From assembly GCA_964402515.1 (NCBI GenBank), contig CAYOCM010000002.1, positions 4,669 to 68,668 on the forward strand: a stretch of DNA of 64,000 bases, given 5' to 3'. Both the position numbers and the translations under genes were made by a program. This document shows positions 6,506 through 26,889 of this stretch, piece after piece. Origin of the DNA: an uncultured Ruminococcus sp. Lineage in GTDB: Bacteria; Bacillota; Clostridia; Oscillospirales; CAG-382. The notes under the pieces were generated by a model. It had not been told where the DNA came from, did not search any database, and saw nothing but the letters and a program-made list of their open reading frames with translations. Every line of letters begins with the position of its first letter. The stretch's first letter is position 1.

Positions 6506-6907
6506 ATGGCAGAAAAAAATACGGCAAAAAGTTGGAATAAAAAAATATTTGCCATGTTGCTGCAACGCGCGCAGGGCGACCGAAGCACAAGGCAGTTTGC
6601 GCTAGAGTGCGATATCAGTTATGTGCAGATGCGCAAGCTGATAATGATGGAGCAAGAAAATCCGCCCAGGCCAAAACTTATCAAAAAAATAGCCGACCAC
6701 GCTTTCGGCGAGGTCGACTTGTCTGACTTGATGTTTGCCGCGGGAATTTCGCAGCAACAAAAACAGGCGCGAATTGACGGAGCCGACCAACTTATGCAAG
6801 TAGGCGTCGGCGTAAAATATCGCAGTCTTACCGTAAAAGAGCGCCGCAGTGTAGAAGAATATATCGACTATATCATATGGCGCAAAAGTTCGGACTTACA
6901 AAAATAG
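6506..6907 (+). CDS. helix-turn-helix (XRE-like) domain protein
   Basis: STRQFALECDISYVQMRKLIMMEQ is an HTH-like segment. The ATG directly abuts the coaW stop. The function call is weak. Confidence 0.5.
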   Translation: MAEKNTAKSWNKKIFAMLLQRAQGDRSTRQFALECDISYVQMRKLIMMEQENPPRPKLIKKIADHAFGEVDLSDLMFAAGISQQQKQARIDGADQLMQVGVGVKYRSLTVKERRSVEEYIDYIIWRKSSDLQK

Positions 6908-7174
6908 CATTGCCGCCACAAACAGCAATATCATATCGCTTGAGATGTCCGAATCCAAAAGCAGCAGTATGCCTATGGCTATTATAAGCAAGTCGTCTGT
7001 CTCAAGCCTTTTTAAAAAACTTAAGTCTATTAAGCTTTTTTTACCGGATTCCGCCGGCGGCGATACGGTTGAAACGGCGGGTTCCGATACCGTCTGTTCG
7101 GACCCAAACTGACCGTCATACGCGCTCGAATACATGCCGTCGGATTGCACTCCGCCATAATCGCGGCTATACAT
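6896..7174 (-). CDS. hypothetical small protein with an acidic-studded C-terminal hydrophobic helix
   Basis: GGAGG at 7187-7183 sits 8 nt before ATG 7174, while the track start at 7183 is a GTG inside that SD. The C-terminus reads DDLLIIAIGILLLLDSDISSDMILLFVAAMLFL. Confidence 0.5.
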   Translation of the reverse strand: MYSRDYGGVQSDGMYSSAYDGQFGSEQTVSEPAVSTVSPPAESGKKSLIDLSFLKRLETDDLLIIAIGILLLLDSDISSDMILLFVAAMLFL

Positions 7175-12800: not shown

Positions 12801-13141
12801 TGAAGCAGCTTGTTTGCATAGGTTGCCCCCGAGGCTGCCGACTTGAAATAGACGAAAACACGCTTGAAGTCAAAGGCAATTTTTGCCCCACCGGCGCAGA
12901 ATACGGCAAAAACGAGCTTGTTTCGCCTATGCGCACCGTCACCGCGACGGTTAACATAGAGGGCGGCATTCACGCGCGACTTGCCGTGCGCACCGACAAA
13001 GCCGTGCCCAAATCAAAAATGTTTGACGTTATAACCGAGCTTAACAAATACACCGCTCATTCACCCGTTAAAATGGGCGACGTGCTTATCAAAAACGTCG
13101 CCGGCACCAAAGCGAATATCATAGCGTCAAGAGATATGTAA
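12800..13141 (+). CDS. DUF1667 domain protein
   Basis: MKQLVCIGCPRGCRLEIDE...CPTGAEYG is typical of DUF1667. It is the third member of the conserved clostridial GlpA-like trio. Its ATG overlaps the upstream TAA. Confidence 0.8.
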   Translation: MKQLVCIGCPRGCRLEIDENTLEVKGNFCPTGAEYGKNELVSPMRTVTATVNIEGGIHARLAVRTDKAVPKSKMFDVITELNKYTAHSPVKMGDVLIKNVAGTKANIIASRDM

Positions 13142-13155
13142 ATAATCGCATATAC

Positions 13156-13191
13156 AAAAAATCAAGGTCAAATCAATGACCTTGATTTTTT
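13156..13191. terminator. bidirectional rho-independent terminator
   Basis: Stem ATCAAGGTCA (13161-13170) pairs with TGACCTTGAT (13177-13186) around a 6-nt loop, with an A-run before and a T-run after. It serves the convergent DUF1667 and pilin-like genes. Confidence 0.8.
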
Positions 13192-13240
13192 GTGTTATGG
13201 TGTATCAGACCAATTAAGGATGTTGTAAATAATTAATCCA

Positions 13241-15337
13241 TTATTGAATCCAATCATATCCGCCTGAAATCTGCGAATGTTTTGTTATTAATTGCTCATG
13301 ACTTCCGTTCATGACCGATGCCAAAGGACCTCGTTGGCAAATCGCATTTACGTTGTATATACAGAATTTGTTTTCAAACCTTGCATCGTCCGCTTTGATA
13401 TAAGTCATAACGAACAAACCTTGCGCTTCATTAGTGGGCAGATCGCCAAACGAAGGAATATTCAAACTTCCGTTAGCAAACAATACTGTATTATAAAGAG
13501 CTATATTGGAGATAGAATCCTCATCATAATCGTCTTCGCTTGTTTTAATAGTTAGCATATATCCGTTTAAATCAAAATATAACTCATCTAATATACAAGG
13601 AGGGTACGGATAGTTACACTGTACACCGAACATTTCAACAAACTCTTTTACACTAAGTTCAACATTTTGTGTAAGTCTGTAATAATAAGTTTTTTTATCG
13701 GTTTCATCATTTTCGACCTTGCTGGTTATATCATATCCGCTGATCTTGATTATTTCTGCATCGTCGGGGATAGCACTGTAATGATGGCAATCGCCATTGG
13801 TGCAGAAGCCGTCGGCGCCGTGGTTATGAGCGGCTTTTATATCTTCTTTGCCCTCGTTGTAAGTGCAGTTTTTGCACTGTTGATATTGGTTATGACCGTC
13901 TTCGGTGCAGGTTGGTTCTTTTGCCTGAATAGTTTCTAAATCGTGACCTGCCTTAATAAGCACATAATCGGTATCTTTTTCTCCGCAAACCGAGCACTTG
14001 TGATATGTATTCCAACCGTCTTCGGTGCAAGATTTAGCTTTCGCGTCAACTACAACCGACATATCATGTCCGGTAGCTTTTATGACCTCATAGCCTTTTA
14101 CGGCACTGCAACGCGAGCATTTTTGATAATCTTTATAGCCGTTTACGGTGCAAGTTGCATCTTGACCTTTTTGATCTCGATAATCATGTCCGAGAACTTC
14201 GGTAGTTTTAAATTCTGTATGTCCGCATTTCTTGCAGTATTTGAACTGAACGCCCGGAGTTGTGCAGTTTGCCTCGGTAAGCTCTCGCCACTCGGAATAG
14301 CTCTCGTGTTTGCAGTTTTCGATAACCGTTTCACCGGGAACCTCAATCTTAATAATTTCTTTTTCACCGGGAACTTCGACTATTACAGTTTCTTTATCGC
14401 CTTTTACTTTTTCAAAAGTCTGTTCAAAGAGTACGCAGTCGCACAAAGTGCATTTCATGGTAACTTTGTAACGTGTTTCGTCTATATCGGTAGTTACAAA
14501 CTCGCCTCCGATATGATCGTGATCGGGGTTAAGCATGTCACAGAAATAGCATTTGTTTTCTGAATTGTAAAGATGCTGGCTATAAAGCGCACCTTGGTCT
14601 TCGTCAATACCTACAACGTTTTCTTTTGCATCATGGAACATAGTTCCCGCAGCGGCTATGACCTTGCCGCCGGTTTTGGTAAATGTTCTTACAAATCCGT
14701 AAACGGTGACGGTGCCGTCTTTAACGGCAAGAGCGCCACCGTAGGTGCGAACTCGGAGTTCCTTGTCTTTGGCGTCAACGGTCACATTGATCTGACTGTG
14801 TCCGGCGTCAAAATTGCGGTCGATAACAGTGATTTCAGTGGCATCGCCGTTATAATAAATCGAATAGTTGTGCTCAAAACCGCTGACCTTATCATCGACA
14901 TAATAAAAGTTAATGACAGATTCTTTTGCCGTTTGCTTTTGCTCGTCGGTTACGATATCTTCGGGAACATAATTAACGGTTTTGCCCTCGCCGTCTTCGG
15001 CATAGCAGAATACATCGTTAACGCTGTCCCACAGGATATAGAATCCCTCGGTGGTCGGCTTGATAAGCGTTACGTCAAAGCCGTGCTCTTTAACGGCATG
15101 AACCGCGTCGTGCATAGTGTCGTGCTTGCCGTTTTCGGTCTTATCGAGCGCAAGAGCGGTATTAAGGTTGCGCACCAACTGCACGTCGGCACTTACGTTC
15201 GCCTTGTTAACAAGGTTTATAAACGTCGGGATAAGTACCGCGGCAAGAATCGCTATGACCGCAATAACTATCACAAGTTCGACGACCGTAAAACCTTTTT
15301 TTGTCTTGATACTTGTTTTCAAGTTTGTTTCCTCCAT
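13241..15337 (-). CDS. large prepilin-type N-terminal cleavage/methylation domain protein with Cys-rich repeats
   Basis: KKG|FTVVELVIVIAVIAILAAVLIP is a class III (type IV pilin) signal with Glu at +5. The likely true start is TTG 15322, because GGAGGA at 15334-15329 lies 7 nt upstream of it and it gives the leader MKTSIKTKKG. Confidence 0.8.
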   Translation of the reverse strand: MEETNLKTSIKTKKGFTVVELVIVIAVIAILAAVLIPTFINLVNKANVSADVQLVRNLNTALALDKTENGKHDTMHDAVHAVKEHGFDVTLIKPTTEGFYILWDSVNDVFCYAEDGEGKTVNYVPEDIVTDEQKQTAKESVINFYYVDDKVSGFEHNYSIYYNGDATEITVIDRNFDAGHSQINVTVDAKDKELRVRTYGGALAVKDGTVTVYGFVRTFTKTGGKVIAAAGTMFHDAKENVVGIDEDQGALYSQHLYNSENKCYFCDMLNPDHDHIGGEFVTTDIDETRYKVTMKCTLCDCVLFEQTFEKVKGDKETVIVEVPGEKEIIKIEVPGETVIENCKHESYSEWRELTEANCTTPGVQFKYCKKCGHTEFKTTEVLGHDYRDQKGQDATCTVNGYKDYQKCSRCSAVKGYEVIKATGHDMSVVVDAKAKSCTEDGWNTYHKCSVCGEKDTDYVLIKAGHDLETIQAKEPTCTEDGHNQYQQCKNCTYNEGKEDIKAAHNHGADGFCTNGDCHHYSAIPDDAEIIKISGYDITSKVENDETDKKTYYYRLTQNVELSVKEFVEMFGVQCNYPYPPCILDELYFDLNGYMLTIKTSEDDYDEDSISNIALYNTVLFANGSLNIPSFGDLPTNEAQGLFVMTYIKADDARFENKFCIYNVNAICQRGPLASVMNGSHEQLITKHSQISGGYDWIQ
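13820..14272 (-). repeat. four tandem protein-level repeats of about 40 aa, C-T-x2-G-x5-C-x2-C-x(10-12)-(G/A)H(D/N)
   Basis: aa 356-385 ANCTTPGVQFKYCKKCGHTEFKTTEVLGHD; aa 394-425 ATCTVNGYKDYQKCSRCSAVKGYEVIKATGHD; aa 435-466 KSCTEDGWNTYHKCSVCGEKDTDYVLIKAGHD; aa 475-506 PTCTEDGHNQYQQCKNCTYNEGKEDIKAAHNH. Confidence 0.8.
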
Positions 15338-15356
15338 AACTTAAAAATGTGAATAT

Positions 15357-15382
15357 GTACGCCTAACAGTATATTAGGCGTA
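15357..15382. repeat. left 26-bp inverted repeat (lox-like site: 10-bp arms, 7-nt core CAGTATA)
   Basis: GTACGCCTAACAGTATATTAGGCGTA is the exact reverse complement of 15505-15530. It is internally palindromic except for the 7-nt core. Confidence 0.85.
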
Positions 15383-15395
15383 CGTTTATGGTGTC

Positions 15396-15424
15396 ATAAT
15401 AGCAGACAAAAAACATTTTGTCAA
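15396..15424 (-). promoter_or_regulatory. near-consensus sigma-A promoter facing the pilin-like gene
   Basis: Read on the minus strand: TTGACA (15424-15419), 17-nt spacer, TATTAT (15401-15396). Confidence 0.65.
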
Positions 15425-15504
15425 TAGTTTTTACAATAAAAAATGAACTTTTTTAACAAATAGGCCTTTATTGATACTTGTTATCGTTTAATTTTGGTGT
15501 TTTT

Positions 15505-15530
15505 TACGCCTAATATACTGTTAGGCGTAC
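15505..15530. repeat. right 26-bp inverted repeat (core TATACTG, the reverse complement of the left core)
   Basis: TACGCCTAATATACTGTTAGGCGTAC. It is separated from the left copy by 122 bp. Confidence 0.85.
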
Positions 15531-15557
15531 GTTTTTATATTAATATAACACGCACAT

Positions 15558-15630
15558 AAAAACGCCGATATGCTTTTTGCATACCGGCGTTTTTAATTGT
15601 ATAAAAGGTCGTCACACGGACGACCTTTTT
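15558..15630. terminator. two tandem hairpin terminators downstream of the InlB-repeat operon
   Basis: Hairpin 1 spans 15562-15590 (11 of 12 bp paired, TTTTT loop) and is flanked by A5 and T4, so it can act in both directions. Hairpin 2 is GGTCGTC (15607-15613) paired with GACGACC (15619-15625), flanked by an A-run and a T-run. Confidence 0.7.
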
Positions 15631-15635
15631 ATATT

Positions 15636-15977
15636 TTAATCGGGTATTGTTGTTACGGTAAACACCTTGTTTTGCGTATCATACGCTATTGCGGCGGTAA
15701 AACCGTCGTATTTTTGCGAATAATCGGCATATTCGGGATTTGCTTTGATAAAACCGTCAAACATCTCGCCGTCGACACCGTCGTAATATGCGGTTACTCC
15801 GCCGTAAATGCCTTTGCTTATCTCGCGGCATTCACCCGGAAACTCGGGCAAGCCGTCGGGCAAGCTCGGTTTGGCAAGACCGTTGCTTATCAGCATAAGC
15901 ACCGCTATTATCACAACAAGCGCCGCCGCTGCCGAAAGCAACCATACCAATTTGCGCTTATCTGCCGCACTCATCAA
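15636..15977 (-). CDS. small membrane-anchored hypothetical protein
   Basis: One N-terminal TM helix (LVWLLSAAAALVVIIAVLMLI). Its ATG overlaps the upstream stop (ATGA), indicating translational coupling. Confidence 0.5.
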   Translation of the reverse strand: MMSAADKRKLVWLLSAAAALVVIIAVLMLISNGLAKPSLPDGLPEFPGECREISKGIYGGVTAYYDGVDGEMFDGFIKANPEYADYSQKYDGFTAAIAYDTQNKVFTVTTIPD

Positions 15978-18445
15978 TATTTCTCCTGTTTCCAGCGGAT
16001 AAAGAACAGTACTCCGGCAGCGATAACCGCAAGAATTATTATAATTATCGCAACAACGAGACCGGGGTTTGAGGAACCGTTATCATCGGTGCCCGAAGCG
16101 TTTTGATCGATCTCAAACTGCGCCTCGATAGTGTGGTCTGCCGTTACGCGCTCAAACGTATAGCTGTATACCGACTGACCCGCAACATCGGATATTGCCG
16201 TGCCGTCTATAAGAATGCTCTTTATAACATATCCTTCGTCGGCGACTATGCTGTATGTTGCCGAGCTGCCGGTGGTTACCGACTTGCTGCCCGCAGGGCT
16301 TATTTTGCCGCCGTCGGATGCGCTCGAAACTATGGTATAGCGCAGTTCGAGGCTTTCGCAGAATGTGACGTATTCGTCATTGAAATAATATACGCATATC
16401 CAGCCTTCGTTGTCGACAACGGCCTGATTTGCGGCGGCCGAACCGTCTGCCTTTGTGGGCGATGCAAGCGCCGAGTCTTTAAGCACGAGATAATCAAGCG
16501 TTTTGCCCGCGTATATCGCGCCCATGTTATAAGACAGCGTGGTGCCGTCGGGCCATATCACATATGCGGGCATTTGAATGGCAGCATAGTCTATATTGCC
16601 CACGGTTTGAGAGATATAATCGATTATGGTGTCAAATCCGTCGCCCGAACCGTCTATTGCAACCGCAAGGTCGATGTTTTCGCCGCTTACGGTTGCCGAC
16701 GAGCCCGCGGGTATAAATATTTTGATCTTATCGTTATAAAATACGCACGCCTTGCCGGTAGAAGCAAGCTTGTCGAATATTTCTTTTGAAACTTTGGTCT
16801 TTTGAGAAATATTAACGTATATCGTGTCGCGGCTCCAATCGACGTCGGTGACTTTGATGACATCGTCCGAGGGAGTGACAGTCGATTCTTGTTTTTTAAA
16901 CGTAACGTGTATATTTGAATTTGAGGATATTCCGCTCATCGTATAAGAGTTGCCGCTGATGTTGACAGCAACTCCGCCGACGGTGACGGTGTCGACGATA
17001 TATCCGGTGTCGGGCGCAAAAGTAAACCTGATGCTTTCGCCCGAAAGCACGCTGTTTTCACCCGAGGGATTGATAGAGCCGTGCTCACCCGCCGTGGCAT
17101 TGACGGTGAATACGGGAACGTCGGTTTGCATCGGTGTAAATTTGACCGCTATGCGCATATCGGCAGTGACCGCCGCTACGATATATTTGCCCTCTGAATT
17201 AAACGACTTTAAAACGCCGTCGATGCGGAACGTGTCAAGTTTATAGCCCAATGCGGGTTCGGCGGTTATCTCGAGCGCCGAATCTTTTGCAAACTGAGTG
17301 GGTGACGATATCTCGGTGCCGTTGATATAAAGTTTGCCGCCGCTCGAAACGCTGGGAGTGACGGTTATCGCCTGAGTAAATTCAACGTCGTATATAATGT
17401 CTTCGGTACCTATCTTAAGCGTAATGACATTATCTACCACCTGCGATGTAAGGTCTTCGGCGCCGAAAACGACAGACTTAAACATCCAATAATTGCCTTT
17501 TTCGCTTGTGGGCTCAAACTTAAACGTTATGTTGCTGTCAGCGGGATAATATCCCGTGCCGGGCACGACCTTGCCCGAACCGATAACATTAAACGTTACC
17601 TGAACGCCTTTGACAAATTCGGCAACGATATTCATGGGCGACTCGCCCGTGGTGACCTTAAGTTTGCCGTCTTTGACATCTGCGGTGCGGTCGGTGCCGT
17701 CTACGGTGACCGATTTAAGCACATAGCCCTCGGCGGCGGCAAAAGTCAATTCGAGTTCGGTAAGGGGATAATAAGAACCCTCGGCGGGAGTAACTGTGCC
17801 CTGACCGTTTACGGTAACGTTTATGGGTTGCATTTCTCCCATAGCAGTGGTTTCGACAGTGACCGTGTTGGTTTCGCCGACGGTGATTTCAAATTCGGTA
17901 CCCGCGACATCGGCATCGTTGAATTTGATGCCGCCTATGCGCATTCCTTCATCGGCAAAAACCGCAATCTTTGCTTTTGTGCCGAGGTTGGCTCTTGCGA
18001 CGGTGGTACCGTTGACGGTATAAGTAAATCCGCTGCCGACAAAAACTATGTCTCTGCCTACAGACGTGTCGTCTTTAAACCTGACCTCATAAGTGCGGTC
18101 GGCCATATCTTCGTCGGTGTATTCGTAGTTTGTTTTGCCGCTTACGCCCGGTATGCTTACGCCGCTGACTTTAAACGATTCTATCGACTTGTCGGTGTTT
18201 GATACCGCTTTTATGACCGCGGGAGTGCCTTTGGGTATCGTATAAACATTGTCAACTGGAGTGTATCCGTCGACAAACGCCGTGCCGCCCTCTCCGCATA
18301 TAACGGTTATGCTGTAAGTTTGGTCTGCTTGCGATGATTCATCGGGTTGCGACGGATCTTCTTCGGCAAAAACGCATTGTGCCGCAAGCGCAAACATAAA
18401 AACTGCGGCAAGCATTATTGCGACCGATCTTTTAAATCTGTTCAT
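15974..18445 (-). CDS. secreted, C-terminally anchored surface protein with multiple InlB B-repeat-like Ig modules
   Basis: Signal peptide MNRFKRSVAIMLAAVFMFALAAQCVFA. Repeated modules of the type GGKISPAGSKSVTTGSSATYSIVADEGYVIKSILIDG. C-terminal TM helix VVAIIIIILAVIAAGVLFFI followed by RWKQEKY. Confidence 0.75.
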   Translation of the reverse strand: MNRFKRSVAIMLAAVFMFALAAQCVFAEEDPSQPDESSQADQTYSITVICGEGGTAFVDGYTPVDNVYTIPKGTPAVIKAVSNTDKSIESFKVSGVSIPGVSGKTNYEYTDEDMADRTYEVRFKDDTSVGRDIVFVGSGFTYTVNGTTVARANLGTKAKIAVFADEGMRIGGIKFNDADVAGTEFEITVGETNTVTVETTAMGEMQPINVTVNGQGTVTPAEGSYYPLTELELTFAAAEGYVLKSVTVDGTDRTADVKDGKLKVTTGESPMNIVAEFVKGVQVTFNVIGSGKVVPGTGYYPADSNITFKFEPTSEKGNYWMFKSVVFGAEDLTSQVVDNVITLKIGTEDIIYDVEFTQAITVTPSVSSGGKLYINGTEISSPTQFAKDSALEITAEPALGYKLDTFRIDGVLKSFNSEGKYIVAAVTADMRIAVKFTPMQTDVPVFTVNATAGEHGSINPSGENSVLSGESIRFTFAPDTGYIVDTVTVGGVAVNISGNSYTMSGISSNSNIHVTFKKQESTVTPSDDVIKVTDVDWSRDTIYVNISQKTKVSKEIFDKLASTGKACVFYNDKIKIFIPAGSSATVSGENIDLAVAIDGSGDGFDTIIDYISQTVGNIDYAAIQMPAYVIWPDGTTLSYNMGAIYAGKTLDYLVLKDSALASPTKADGSAAANQAVVDNEGWICVYYFNDEYVTFCESLELRYTIVSSASDGGKISPAGSKSVTTGSSATYSIVADEGYVIKSILIDGTAISDVAGQSVYSYTFERVTADHTIEAQFEIDQNASGTDDNGSSNPGLVVAIIIIILAVIAAGVLFFIRWKQEKY

Positions 18446-24598: not shown

Positions 24599-24628
24599 TT
24601 GACAACACGGGCAAAAGTATGTTATATA
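24599..24628 (+). promoter_or_regulatory. sigma-A-type promoter for the glucosaminidase gene
   Basis: TTGACA (24599-24604), 17-18 nt spacer, TATATA (24623-24628). Confidence 0.5.
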
Positions 24629-24678
24629 TGATTGAGTATTTATTTTTTTCGGACGGCTTTTATTACGAGAGGAAACAT

Positions 24679-26889
24679 ATGAAATATATATCAAAATTAA
24701 GGCGTTTTGCGGCGTTTGCCGTAGCATTGGCGACGCTTGCCGCCGCTATACCCGCCGTAAGCAATCAAAAGGTTTCCGCGCTTACCGACAGGCAGACTTG
24801 GTTTGCCGAGCTTATGGGTTCGTTTGCGCGCGCCGATATGCACAAAACCGGCATACTTGCTTCGCTTACCGCGGGACAGGCAATATTCGAAAGCGGTTGG
24901 GGCACCAGCAGAATAGGCGTTGAGGGCAAAAACCTTTTCGGATACAAGGCTTATTCGTCATGGAGCGGCAGAGTATATGAATACCGCTCAGCCACCTTAT
25001 ATTCAAATTATGACGATATGCTCATTGCATTGGGCAACGACGACCGCAACGCAAGCCCGTGGCGCGCATACGCCGATTGGCGCGAGAGTGTCGAAGACCA
25101 CTCTACCCTACTTTGCGGCAGCGACAGATATGCGGCGCTCGTGGGCGAAACGGATTATAAAAAGGCGGCGTTTGCAATAGTCGAGGCGGGATACACAAGC
25201 GACGACGGCTATGCCGAGCAACTTATTGCCATAATCGAAAATTACGGTCTCACTATGTATGACGACCTTACACCCAACGAATATGGCGTTATCGCCATCG
25301 AGATGAACAAAGCTCAGTTGTTTTTAAGCATCAACGACGGCGCCGATCTGTCTTACGAGATATTTGAAGCGGAATTTGTTCCCGAAGAGAGCGAAGACGC
25401 CTCGCAAGAACCGTCGGACATGCCTTCTGACGATATAAGCGACGTATCCGACGACGAACAGTCAAGCGAATCGAGCGACGACACATCGGACACTATGTCG
25501 GAAAGCACATCCGAAGGAGAACCGATCCGAGACGAATCCGCCGACCAAAGCGACGAAACAAGCACCGACGAAACATCCGCCGACACCGGCGCGACAGGCT
25601 GGCTTGATTATACCGTCGAATGGGAAAGCAGCGATCCTTCGGTCGCGTCGGTAGACCAAAACGGCAACGTCACCGCGCTCAAAGAGGGCGTGGCACTTAT
25701 CAGAGCAAAAGTCGGCAACCGCGAGGCTTGCTGTTTGGTAGAGGTTTCGGGTGAAACGGCATATGACGCATATGTCACATCAACGCTTAACGTGCGCGAA
25801 GAGCCTAATACCAACGGCAAAAAATTGGGCATATTCCCCAAAGGACAGGGGATTTATCTGCACAGTGAAAATGTTGACGGATGGTATCTTTGCGAAGGAA
25901 TAGGCACCGACGGCGAACATTTAAAAGGTTGGGCAAGCGCCTCTTATATAGTTTTAAACAACCACAAAGGACTTGCCACGCAAATACATGCGGCAAAAAG
26001 TCTGTTTTCGATCGCGGTGGGCGACACGGCTCAGATAGTATATGCATTGGCGCCCGCTACCGCAACGCAGACCGACATAAAATGGACATCAGCAAACACA
26101 AACATAGCCACCGTCAGTTCGGACGGTATTATATCCGCCGTCGCAAAAGGCGCGACTACCGTCACGGGCGTTACCTCGGGCGACGCTACCGTTACGGTTG
26201 ATATCAGAGTCGGTGACACGGCAACAAACTATGTCGCCGTCACAAACACAAGACTGTATGTTCGCGCCGCAAGCAGTGCCGACTCAAAAGCGCTCGGCAT
26301 AATAGACGCCGACACCGAGATAGAGGTTGTAGGCGAAGAGGTCGACGGCTGGTATCATGTTATCGTCGACAGCAAAAACGGCAAGACGATAGAGGGCTGG
26401 TCAAAAGCCAGATATATAAGCATAACCTCGCTTGTGGGCGGAACTCCGCCCGCGGCCGAACTGACTTTTACCGACGAAAGTATAGTTTCTTCGGGCGGCA
26501 GCCTTTACGGAATTATTCCCGAAACAACGCTCGGCGGACTCAACGGCATCTGCACGACATCGGGTGAGATCAAACTTTTTGCCGTTGACGGCACACAAAA
26601 AACAGACGGGCAAAAACTTGCCACCGGCGATGTTTTGGTGCTTTATTACGAAGGTGTCGAAATAGATCGCAAAACGCTGATCATCAGAGGCGACGTCAAT
26701 TGCGACGGCGAAATAAACTCTGCCGATTATCTGTTTATAAAGCGTTATATGGTCGGCACGCTTGAGCTGAGCGAGCATCAAAAACTTGCTGCGGACGCAT
26801 CGTGCGACGGCGAATTGTTGGTAAACGATTATCTGATGGTGGTCAGGCATTATCTCGGAGAATATACGATAATTCAAAAAGCCCCGTAA
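24679..26889 (+). CDS. secreted N-acetylglucosaminidase-domain (GH73-like) protein with Big_2, SH3-like and dockerin modules
   Basis: Signal peptide; LTAGQAIFESGWGTSRIGVEGKNLFGYKAY (glucosaminidase); an acidic Ser/Asp/Glu linker; two Big_2-like modules and SH3-like modules (LNVREEP...GW; LYVRAASS...GW); C-terminal dockerin GDVNCDGEINSADYLFIKRYMVG...DASCDGELLVNDYLMVVRHYLG. Confidence 0.85.
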   Translation: MKYISKLRRFAAFAVALATLAAAIPAVSNQKVSALTDRQTWFAELMGSFARADMHKTGILASLTAGQAIFESGWGTSRIGVEGKNLFGYKAYSSWSGRVYEYRSATLYSNYDDMLIALGNDDRNASPWRAYADWRESVEDHSTLLCGSDRYAALVGETDYKKAAFAIVEAGYTSDDGYAEQLIAIIENYGLTMYDDLTPNEYGVIAIEMNKAQLFLSINDGADLSYEIFEAEFVPEESEDASQEPSDMPSDDISDVSDDEQSSESSDDTSDTMSESTSEGEPIRDESADQSDETSTDETSADTGATGWLDYTVEWESSDPSVASVDQNGNVTALKEGVALIRAKVGNREACCLVEVSGETAYDAYVTSTLNVREEPNTNGKKLGIFPKGQGIYLHSENVDGWYLCEGIGTDGEHLKGWASASYIVLNNHKGLATQIHAAKSLFSIAVGDTAQIVYALAPATATQTDIKWTSANTNIATVSSDGIISAVAKGATTVTGVTSGDATVTVDIRVGDTATNYVAVTNTRLYVRAASSADSKALGIIDADTEIEVVGEEVDGWYHVIVDSKNGKTIEGWSKARYISITSLVGGTPPAAELTFTDESIVSSGGSLYGIIPETTLGGLNGICTTSGEIKLFAVDGTQKTDGQKLATGDVLVLYYEGVEIDRKTLIIRGDVNCDGEINSADYLFIKRYMVGTLELSEHQKLAADASCDGELLVNDYLMVVRHYLGEYTIIQKAP

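Follow-up and report, generated by a model that had tools for sequence, protein, structure and literature searches.

A stretch of 64,000 nucleotides (nt) from contig CAYOCM010000002.1 of an uncultured Ruminococcus sp. (hereafter the window) carries on its minus strand, at 13241..15322, a gene for a large modular pilin-like protein, preceded by a 122-bp segment that bears a strong promoter between inverted repeats. Here we describe this gene, its upstream cassette and the family to which its product belongs, and propose that it is probably a modular type IV pilin controlled by an invertible promoter (inverton), and dependent on a pilus machine and a recombinase that are encoded elsewhere and act in trans. 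The product has a pilin-type signal and alpha-1 helix, members of its family in other genomes are linked to type IV machinery, and the cassette has an inverton-like anatomy that is found in opposite states among the loci of the family.

Start codon and prepilin signal

The minus-strand open reading frame (ORF) 13241..15337 is confirmed in the ORF list of the window and encodes 698 amino acids (aa) if read from the ATG at 15337. This ATG has no ribosome-binding site, and inspection of the region locates a Shine-Dalgarno motif (GGAGG, 15331..15335, minus strand) 8 nt before a TTG at 15322. Because of this spacing, a 693-aa database protein (P0001) that is 100% identical to the window protein, and the closest homologue (L001), which likewise begins at TTG preceded by AGGAGG, the TTG at 15322 is likely to be the start rather than the ATG at 15337. 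The coding sequence would then run over 13241..15322 (stop codon 13241-13243) and yield 693 aa; the initial annotation was right that the product is much larger than structural pilins, and its length of 698 aa needs this correction.

The product begins with a 10-residue class III (prepilin) leader, MKTSIKTKKG (15293..15322, minus strand), which is followed by FTVVELVIVIAVIAILAAVLIPTF. The prepilin signal MKTSIKTKKG/FTVVE (the slash marks the predicted cleavage site after Gly10) combines a short positive leader with Gly(-1), Phe(+1) and Glu(+5). It is recognized by Pfam N_methyl (PF07963, IPR012902; E=3.8e-5, exceeding the cut-off) and by NCBIfam TIGR02532 (23.3 bits versus a cut-off of 16.3 bits), in agreement with the textbook class III signal first read from the translation. 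Models for PpdD, GspG, PilA, ComGC and ComGE match residues 11-91 in part. Among the 80 listed family proteins with the G-F-T-x-x-E motif, 76 have a leader of 7-10 residues. The near-universal Gly at -1 is replaced by Ala (KA/FT[IV][VT]E) in about 30% of family members (24/81; e.g. L008, L009, L015, L016, L021 and L027).

Carrier module, linker and cargo

The protein consists of four parts: the prepilin leader, a carrier module of ∼210 aa, a cargo of Cys-rich repeats, and a near-unique, beta-rich C-terminal domain. The carrier, or N-module (residues 11-235; 14618..15292, minus strand), is delimited by homologue coverage, alignment, profile, AlphaFold model and a GC content at third codon positions (GC3) of 0.552. 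Its invariant positions in the family alignment are G10, F11, T12, E15, P32, W98 and F105. AlphaFold models it with a predicted local distance difference test score (pLDDT) of 89.9 and a predicted template modelling score of 0.82, as an extended alpha-1 helix (residues 13-64, pLDDT 89-97), a small alpha/beta region and long beta-hairpins. A profile built on this module matches the solved pilins Geobacter PilA, Thermus PilA4/5, PilE, PpdD and GspG (E=2.5e-14 to 2e-4), with the match to solved type IV pilins limited to the leader and alpha-1. Model and profile together give the feature that characterizes type IV pilins, a hydrophobic stretch of about 20 residues that extends into an alpha-1 helix of ∼50 residues.

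Following the carrier, two tandem 33-nt linker repeats (14329..14394, minus strand) encode EVPGEKEIIKI and EVPGETVIENC. They lead into a Cys-rich region (residues 337-512; 13787..14314, minus strand) defined by the motif positions of four ∼40-aa units of the form C-x3-G-x5-6-C-x2-C...GH, at aa 353-366, 391-405, 432-446 and 472-486. The units look like Cys3His mini-domains, judging from their motif, and no Pfam family matches the region. They also occur (residues ∼340-505) in non-pilin multi-repeat proteins (P0005, P0007, P0009, P0011 and P0012), and P0012 and others contain long arrays of them with no pilin signal. The protein therefore has the composition of a modular pilin, with an N-terminal pilin module joined to modules that are found outside pilus proteins.

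The C-terminal domain (residues 515-693; 13244..13780, minus strand; GC3 0.346) is modelled with a pLDDT of ∼55-85. An exhaustive phmmer search against 1.84 billion representatives returned only P0002 (51% identical) and weak matches to repeats in two scaffoldins, so that the C-terminal ∼190 aa are near-orphan by sequence comparison. A short motif in this region (LSVKEFVEMFGVQCNYPYPPCILDELY, window 13244-13825) resembles the start of cohesin modules (ISVKDIAGFAGYQANVKYDPSVLQPVY) in P0121/P0122. A cohesin (PF00963) identity was rejected, as there is no Pfam Cohesin match and the hhalign probability is 1.8%. The apparent similarity is one ∼9-bit motif match multiplied over near-identical scaffoldin repeats, and the phmmer E-value of 6e-11 for cohesin proteins arises because the target holds 9-10 of these repeats.

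The upstream promoter cassette

Upstream of the gene, repeat finding identifies two inverted-repeat arms of 37 nt (26 nt perfect; gene-proximal arm 15346..15382, distal arm 15505..15541), which lie 122 nt apart and form the only such pair in the window. Each arm includes a 27-bp core site (proximal 15357-15383, distal 15504-15530) of the form GTACGCCTAA-CAGTATA-TTAGGCGTAC, in which 10-bp palindromic half-sites flank an asymmetric 7-bp spacer. The distal spacer, TATACTG, is the exact reverse complement of the proximal spacer CAGTATA, and the chance expectation for core matches is 0. The 122-bp candidate invertible segment between the arms (15383..15504), which has comparable interiors at other family loci, contains a sigma-70-type promoter (15396..15424, minus strand; TTGACA at 15424-15419, a 17-nt spacer, and TG-extended TATTAT at 15401-15396). 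This promoter matches the consensus at 11 of 12 positions, has an extended -10 element and is the best site in 2.8 kb. It ends 13 nt short of the proximal arm and aims at the gene, so the assembled orientation is ON.

In the opposite orientation the promoter would face the distal arm, which on the plus strand provides a hairpin followed by GTTTTTATATT (terminator-like site, 15505-15529). Two terminators lie beyond it: a bidirectional one (15557..15595, inverted repeat, -27.3 kcal/mol), which closes the upstream InlB-repeat operon and shields the switch, and a second hairpin (15603..15629, -15.3 kcal/mol) directly after the stop codon of a 113-aa gene. The flipped promoter would therefore be silenced, and the adjacent gene would be driven in one orientation only. 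On the other side, the gene converges with the plus-strand DUF1667 operon on a bidirectional intrinsic terminator (13154..13193), a perfect 17-nt inverted repeat flanked by an A-run and a T-run, whose hairpin has a free energy of -24.7 kcal/mol on one strand and -23.5 kcal/mol on the other. The insulation already described for this gene, by a terminator on one side and an inverted-repeat promoter cassette on the other, is thus borne out and extended by the two further upstream terminators; with its unique inverted repeat, promoter and terminators, the cassette is built like a phase-variation switch. No known RNA family was found by Rfam within 13000-16000.

A metagenome scan for the arm motif gave no flipped copies of the window cassette, and returned only one relevant contig (L086) and a chance terminator (L087). 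The L086 site (GTTCGCCTAA-TAACGTA-TTAGGCGAAC, L086:20-46) is of the window-arm type, begins 19 nt from the contig start and is followed after 30 nt by a gene for a 581-aa lipoprotein (L086:77-1822), a position that suggests that the recombinase for window-type arms may also control non-pilin surface proteins.

Cassettes at other family loci

The window cassette matches cassettes at ten other loci of the family, and both orientations are present among them. The promoter is ON at the window, L038 and L051, and OFF at eight loci (L003/L004, L097, L098, L081, L002, L008, L017 and the second L016 paralogue), where it faces terminators only. A census of inverted repeats combined with a strong promoter in 1.27 Mb of collected loci recovered 10 cassettes, of which 9 precede a family gene by no more than 1.1 kb. 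Interior lengths are 121-127 bp in the closest cassettes and up to 218 bp elsewhere. In L003/L004 and in L097/L098, the latter a different, LigA-adjacent paralogue, the arms are TCGTAGAGTT-ACC-AACTCTACGA with an interior of about 119-125 bp, and a perfect promoter (TTGACA-17-TGgTATAAT) is aimed away from the gene into a terminator.

The strongest comparative evidence for inversion comes from L051 (ON) and L016 (OFF), two paralogous loci in one metagenome-assembled genome (MAG). Their proximal flanks are identical at 175 of 200 positions. Compared in the same orientation, the interiors agree at 126 of 218 positions, which is the level of shuffled sequences (126.6±3.8, maximum 136); with one interior reverse-complemented, 149 of 218 positions agree, as expected if homologous interiors lie in opposite directions. 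In addition, contigs L005 (the L003 locus in another sample, ERZ27287392) and L001 (the closest homologue of the window locus, from SRR22923249, with the homologous site at its contig start) begin exactly where ON and OFF sequences would diverge, at the inner arm edge; for L005, this start differs from the point at which the paralogous copies diverge. Other contig breaks, 9-25 nt from the start codon, were rejected as evidence for inversion because they fit repeats shared among paralogues, and the count is restricted to L001 and L005. Downstream of the L003 gene there is a second inverted repeat, which was likewise rejected as a switch, being a GC-rich hairpin pair of the repetitive extragenic palindrome (REP) type with no promoter.

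The arms also suggest how several switches might be served by one enzyme. The four cassettes in MAG JAFSVU01, from a goat-rumen sample, have common half-sites, ACATAA(T)/(A)TTATGT, around the different spacers TGATTG, CATCAA, CTTC and ATTT. Across MAGs, the half-site families GTWCGCCTAA, ACATAAT, ACAGAAT, TCGTAGAG and GTTCATCTATTAT are found. Common half-sites with locus-specific spacers are read as an arrangement that would permit one recombinase to flip each locus independently, with no recombination between loci, as with heterospecific lox sites.

Several other features were noted around these loci. In six of them (L038:3896-4390, L016:16291-16770, L002:9433-9873, L008, L017 and L051) an ORF for a polytopic membrane protein of 146-165 aa lies between the cassette and the pilin-like gene, so that the switch would drive a two-gene operon; the L016 and L038 proteins end in ICR(L/M)NC, no Pfam match is recorded for the L002 ORF, and the window has no such ORF. 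Tyrosine-recombinase-like segments occur near family genes in L076 (8844-9080, ∼0.9 kb upstream), L065 (360-815) and L040 (4110-4604), three loci that have no inverted-repeat promoter cassette. REP-like GC-rich palindromes with TGTCATTGCGAGG recur intergenically in several Oscillospiraceae MAGs (L030:11866-12005, the L047 upstream region, and L053:2411-2631 and 6761-6911); these repeats yield promoterless inverted-repeat pairs and are not to be confused with invertons.

The protein family and its link to type IV machinery

A word-indexed protein search with the window protein gives 1915 significant matches. Of the best 120, 95 match residues ∼1-210 (40-55% identity) and about 40 cover residues ∼340-505; the alignment extends into the final 190 residues in only 2-3. 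At least 362 loci encode the N-module in a scan of one genome per species. The description of the protein as an orphan in the initial annotation thus does not apply to the family, and is apt, as near-orphan, for the C-terminal ∼190 aa only. The hosts are uncultured Clostridia of gut and rumen, with labels such as Christensenellaceae, Oscillospiraceae and Eubacteriales, and several copies may be present in one MAG (five in JAFSVU01, three each in four others). Family genes are usually surrounded by housekeeping genes, and other members carry leucine-rich repeat, beta-helix or Big domains after the shared N-module. Databases label them merely "type II secretion system protein". Literature searches on invertons and pilins in Clostridia yielded general inverton surveys, none of which describes this family or promoter inversion upstream of type IV pilin-like genes, and the paper on the "TANB77 conserved pilin" concerns a Tad-type cluster that is different from the family of the window gene.

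The 837-aa protein P0003 (from a 16.8-kb contig in NCBI) equals the window protein over the first ∼76 residues, with one I/V difference (window 15098-15322), and then diverges, which suggests that paralogues or close relatives have homogenized or exchanged the 5' carrier module. A single-protein genome scan found no close relatives among species representatives, and exact-sequence look-ups of the window protein, its DUF1667 neighbour and P0003 returned no contigs.

Genes for A24 peptidase, T2SSF and T2SSE lie within 10 kb of the family gene in 8 of 83 collected loci. In L007 the operon consists of the family gene (536 aa), three small N_methyl pilins, two ORFs of unknown function, an A24 prepilin peptidase, PilC and PilB, in this order. 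On this evidence from gene order the family belongs to type IV filament biology, and the dispersed paralogues, including that of the window, would use the machine in trans. The dependence on a distant type IV pilus system suggested for the window gene is plausible because paralogues in other genomes share operons with prepilin peptidase, PilC and PilB.

Composition and synteny of the locus

The initial annotation interpreted the AT-richness of the gene as a possible sign of horizontal acquisition. All ten of its 60-nt G+C counts are reproduced exactly (20, 19, 19, 26, 21 and 23 in the gene, 28 and 32 in the flanks, and 32 and 31 in two further internal samples), and windowed GC and GC3 agree that the skew is patchy and show that it follows the domains. 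The gene has a GC content of 42.5% versus 48.1% for the window and lies within its lowest 2.1-kb stretch; its GC3 of 0.435 is the lowest of the 37 genes of at least 200 aa (0.547±0.033 for the 36 others; z=-3.4). By part, GC3 is 0.552 in the N-module, which is native, 0.40 in the linker, 0.418 in the Cys repeats and 0.346 in the C-terminal domain.

The same pattern was found in 56 complete family genes (loci L002-L084), for which the background GC3 ranges from 0.15 to 0.79. GC3 of the cargo is below the local background in 53 of the 56 genes (mean -0.19); in 52 it is lower than in the N-module of the same gene (mean -0.13; Wilcoxon p=3e-9). An AT-rich cargo is a trait of the family, and with a native N-module the skew is therefore weak evidence for recent transfer. 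The low cargo GC3 may reflect AT-biased decay of a fast-evolving cargo that is often silent, or a shared pool of low-GC cargo modules and their shuffling.

In the two nearest relatives that were found, whose oxidoreductases are 90% and 80% identical, the order RNase HII, GlpA-like gene, oxidoreductase and DUF1667 gene is kept. Past the DUF1667 gene they diverge completely, with SecA in one and PGA_cap, ALGX and EF-G in the other, and both the pilin-like gene and the InlB-repeat operon are missing from this position. The gene is thus absent from the relatives, as a synteny check for an acquired gene would expect, but the InlB-repeat operon is absent as well, which makes this a general synteny breakpoint rather than a clean insertion. 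The locus is variable. Horizontal acquisition is not demonstrated, the skew being confined to the cargo and common to the family, and mobility genes, tRNA genes and direct repeats being absent: the window has no tRNA genes, integrases or transposases, and no flanking direct repeats.

Alternative explanations

Several observations weigh against an inverton-controlled pilin at this locus. The window locus itself has been seen in one orientation only, and its inversion is inferred. Neither tblastn with FimB, FimE and PinE nor the domain scans of the unidentified window ORFs found a recombinase in the 64 kb; all four assemblies of the L003-type cassette share the OFF orientation, about 70 of the 83 family loci are cassette-free, and repeats common to paralogues could account for some of the contig breaks near family genes. 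The cassette might then be a fixed promoter between two terminator or insulator hairpins, or an element resembling a miniature inverted-repeat transposable element that was copied together with the 5' ends of paralogues; it would not invert, and the gene would be constitutive. Such an element would agree with the fact that each arm is itself a hairpin (the distal one terminator-like on the plus strand), with the duplication of the complete cassette, including its terminator, both arms with their interior, and the untranslated region, between paralogous loci (L003 versus L097/L098), with the lack of any single locus recovered in a second orientation, and with the absence of a recombinase from the window. 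We nevertheless consider it improbable, because in 8 of the 11 loci the strong promoter aims into terminators and away from the gene, a direction in which it has no gene to serve and which would be useless for a fixed element. The exact reverse complementarity of the asymmetric arm spacers, the opposite homologous interiors of L051 and L016 between homologous flanks, and the two contigs that terminate precisely at the inner arm boundary also argue for inversion.

The pilin assignment is likewise opposed by two results. Foldseek of the globular part of the N-module against PDB gave no significant match to solved pilins (best E of 3.9, with weak beta-helix hints), and tblastn with E. coli HofB, HofC and GspO detected no PilB-, PilC- or PilD-like genes in the 64 kb. 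The latter result, together with Pfam scans of the unidentified window ORFs, which revealed no pilus-machinery genes, supports the earlier statement that such genes are lacking from the window; for PilM, of which none was found, the coverage was by these Pfam scans and ORF reading only. The class III signal could instead serve only for export and helix anchoring, or for secretion by a type II-like pseudopilus, with the product membrane-anchored or released, and the switch would be compatible with this. Such a product would be comparable to those archaeal sugar-binding proteins that have class III signals. The body of a filament would not easily accommodate a protein of 693 aa whose cargo is bulky and which has many paralogues in each genome, pilin sequence homology ends after alpha-1, the head has no pilin-fold match, and most paralogues are distant from machinery. 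Even so, we regard this function as rather unlikely, since family members come first in compact operons with pilins, PilD, PilC and PilB in several genomes, and Glu(+5), which is typically required for filament assembly and not for cleavage, is conserved across the family. Solved modular pilins show, moreover, that a large cargo is compatible with display at the tip (PMC8179133). Low probability is also given to 13.2-15.5 kb being a recently acquired foreign islet whose AT-richness comes from a donor genome. The lowest GC3 of the window, the absence of the gene past the DUF1667 gene in the two relatives with 90% and 80% identical oxidoreductases, and a C-terminal domain that is nearly unique among the representatives searched would all fit an islet. 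An atypical composition of the whole insert would be expected too, but the N-module is native in GC3 and only the cargo two-thirds are atypical, as is the cargo of nearly all family genes; integrases, transposases, tRNA targets and flanking direct repeats are absent, and the difference in gene content from the relatives includes the neighbouring InlB-repeat operon, synteny ending altogether after the DUF1667 gene.

Neighbouring genes

The minus-strand operon next to the switch (15636-18445) has native composition and two products. One is a membrane-anchored protein of 113 aa; the other, of 823 aa, has a signal peptide, InlB B-repeats and a transmembrane helix at its C-terminus. Elsewhere in the window (24619-26889), a 756-aa protein combines glucosaminidase, Big_2 and SH3_3 domains with a type I dockerin, which implies a cohesin-dockerin surface assembly in the organism; the window has no recognized cohesin. 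Spo0A, GerA, YtfJ and SpoIID-like genes mark the window as coming from spore-forming Clostridia.

Proposed mechanism and comparison with known systems

For the inverton-controlled modular type IV pilin that we favor, the following sequence of events is proposed. The single near-consensus promoter on the 122-bp segment would transcribe the gene, and the segment would be flipped between the lox-like inverted sites by a site-specific recombinase whose gene lies elsewhere. In the ON state the promoter would read through the proximal arm into the gene; in the OFF state it would read into the distal hairpin and T-run and then into the two terminators. The predicted outcome is stochastic, heritable ON/OFF expression of one surface protein. 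Once cleaved after Gly10 by a prepilin peptidase, this protein would be displayed by a type IV filament machine whose genes lie elsewhere in the genome, probably as a minor, low-abundance or tip subunit, with a cargo that may be adhesive or ligand-binding. More tentatively, and with less confidence than for the single locus, the scattered genes might constitute a genome-wide, combinatorial repertoire for pilus display, in which one carrier module presents varied cargo, a subset of genes is individually switched by invertons while the chromosome keeps its arrangement, and a single machine and one or a few recombinases act in trans; the window gene would be an ON cassette of this repertoire.

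Modular type IV pilins and invertible promoters are each well known separately. If their combination here is real, abundant uncultured gut Firmicutes would vary their adhesive surface in a manner comparable to the capsule and fimbrial switching of Bacteroides, with a bearing on colonization, phage and immune evasion, and strain-level metagenomic variation. For sequence analysis, contig breaks associated with the cassettes fragment MAGs, and an AT-rich cargo may be misread as a trace of horizontal transfer. Half-sites common to several loci, with a private spacer at each, provide a testable rule for pairing switches with a recombinase.

Among modular type IV pilins, which number more than 1,200 proteins with 264 architectures, PilB (pilin and vWA modules) and PilC (pilin and lectin modules) of Streptococcus sanguinis are the closest examples known (Raynaud et al. 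2021, PMC8179133). Like these, the window protein has a class III signal and a small pilin module that carry bulky modules not specific to pili, and ligand binding at the tip is predicted. Unlike these, it has a distinct ∼210-aa carrier with no Pfam model beyond N_methyl and an unannotated cargo, and its gene lies away from a pil locus, belongs to a scattered multi-copy family and is preceded by an invertible-promoter-like cassette.

Invertible promoters include E. coli fimS, flipped by FimB/FimE, the cwpV, flgB and pdcB switches of Clostridioides difficile, flipped by RecV, and those of Bacteroides fragilis polysaccharide loci, flipped by Mpi; RecV and Mpi are invertases that act in trans (PMC7446863, PMC9286219, PMC11602134, PMC11892184). 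The candidate invertible cassettes described here share with them short inverted repeats, a segment of 120-220 bp with an outward promoter before a gene for a surface structure, an OFF state insulated by terminators, and a recombinase that may act in trans on several loci. They differ in that the controlled gene is type IV pilin-like, and in that the arms are complete lox-like palindromic sites with common half-sites and differing spacers.

Site-specific inversion is involved in pilin variation in the Piv system of Moraxella bovis/lacunata and in the R64 shufflon (tip pilin PilV), where coding segments are inverted and pilin C-termini are swapped within one locus. As in these systems, inversion at the family loci would vary what a type IV pilus presents; unlike in these systems, a promoter would flip, and diversity would arise across many paralogues, each switched separately and carrying a different cargo. 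In loxP and FRT, inverted half-sites of ∼10-13 bp flank an asymmetric spacer of 6-8 bp, opposite spacers predict inversion, and the differing spacers of heterospecific lox variants prevent recombination between sites. The arms resemble the Cre/loxP and FLP/FRT systems in this architecture; the resemblance is limited to the sites, and the enzyme might instead be a serine invertase acting on hix-like sites.

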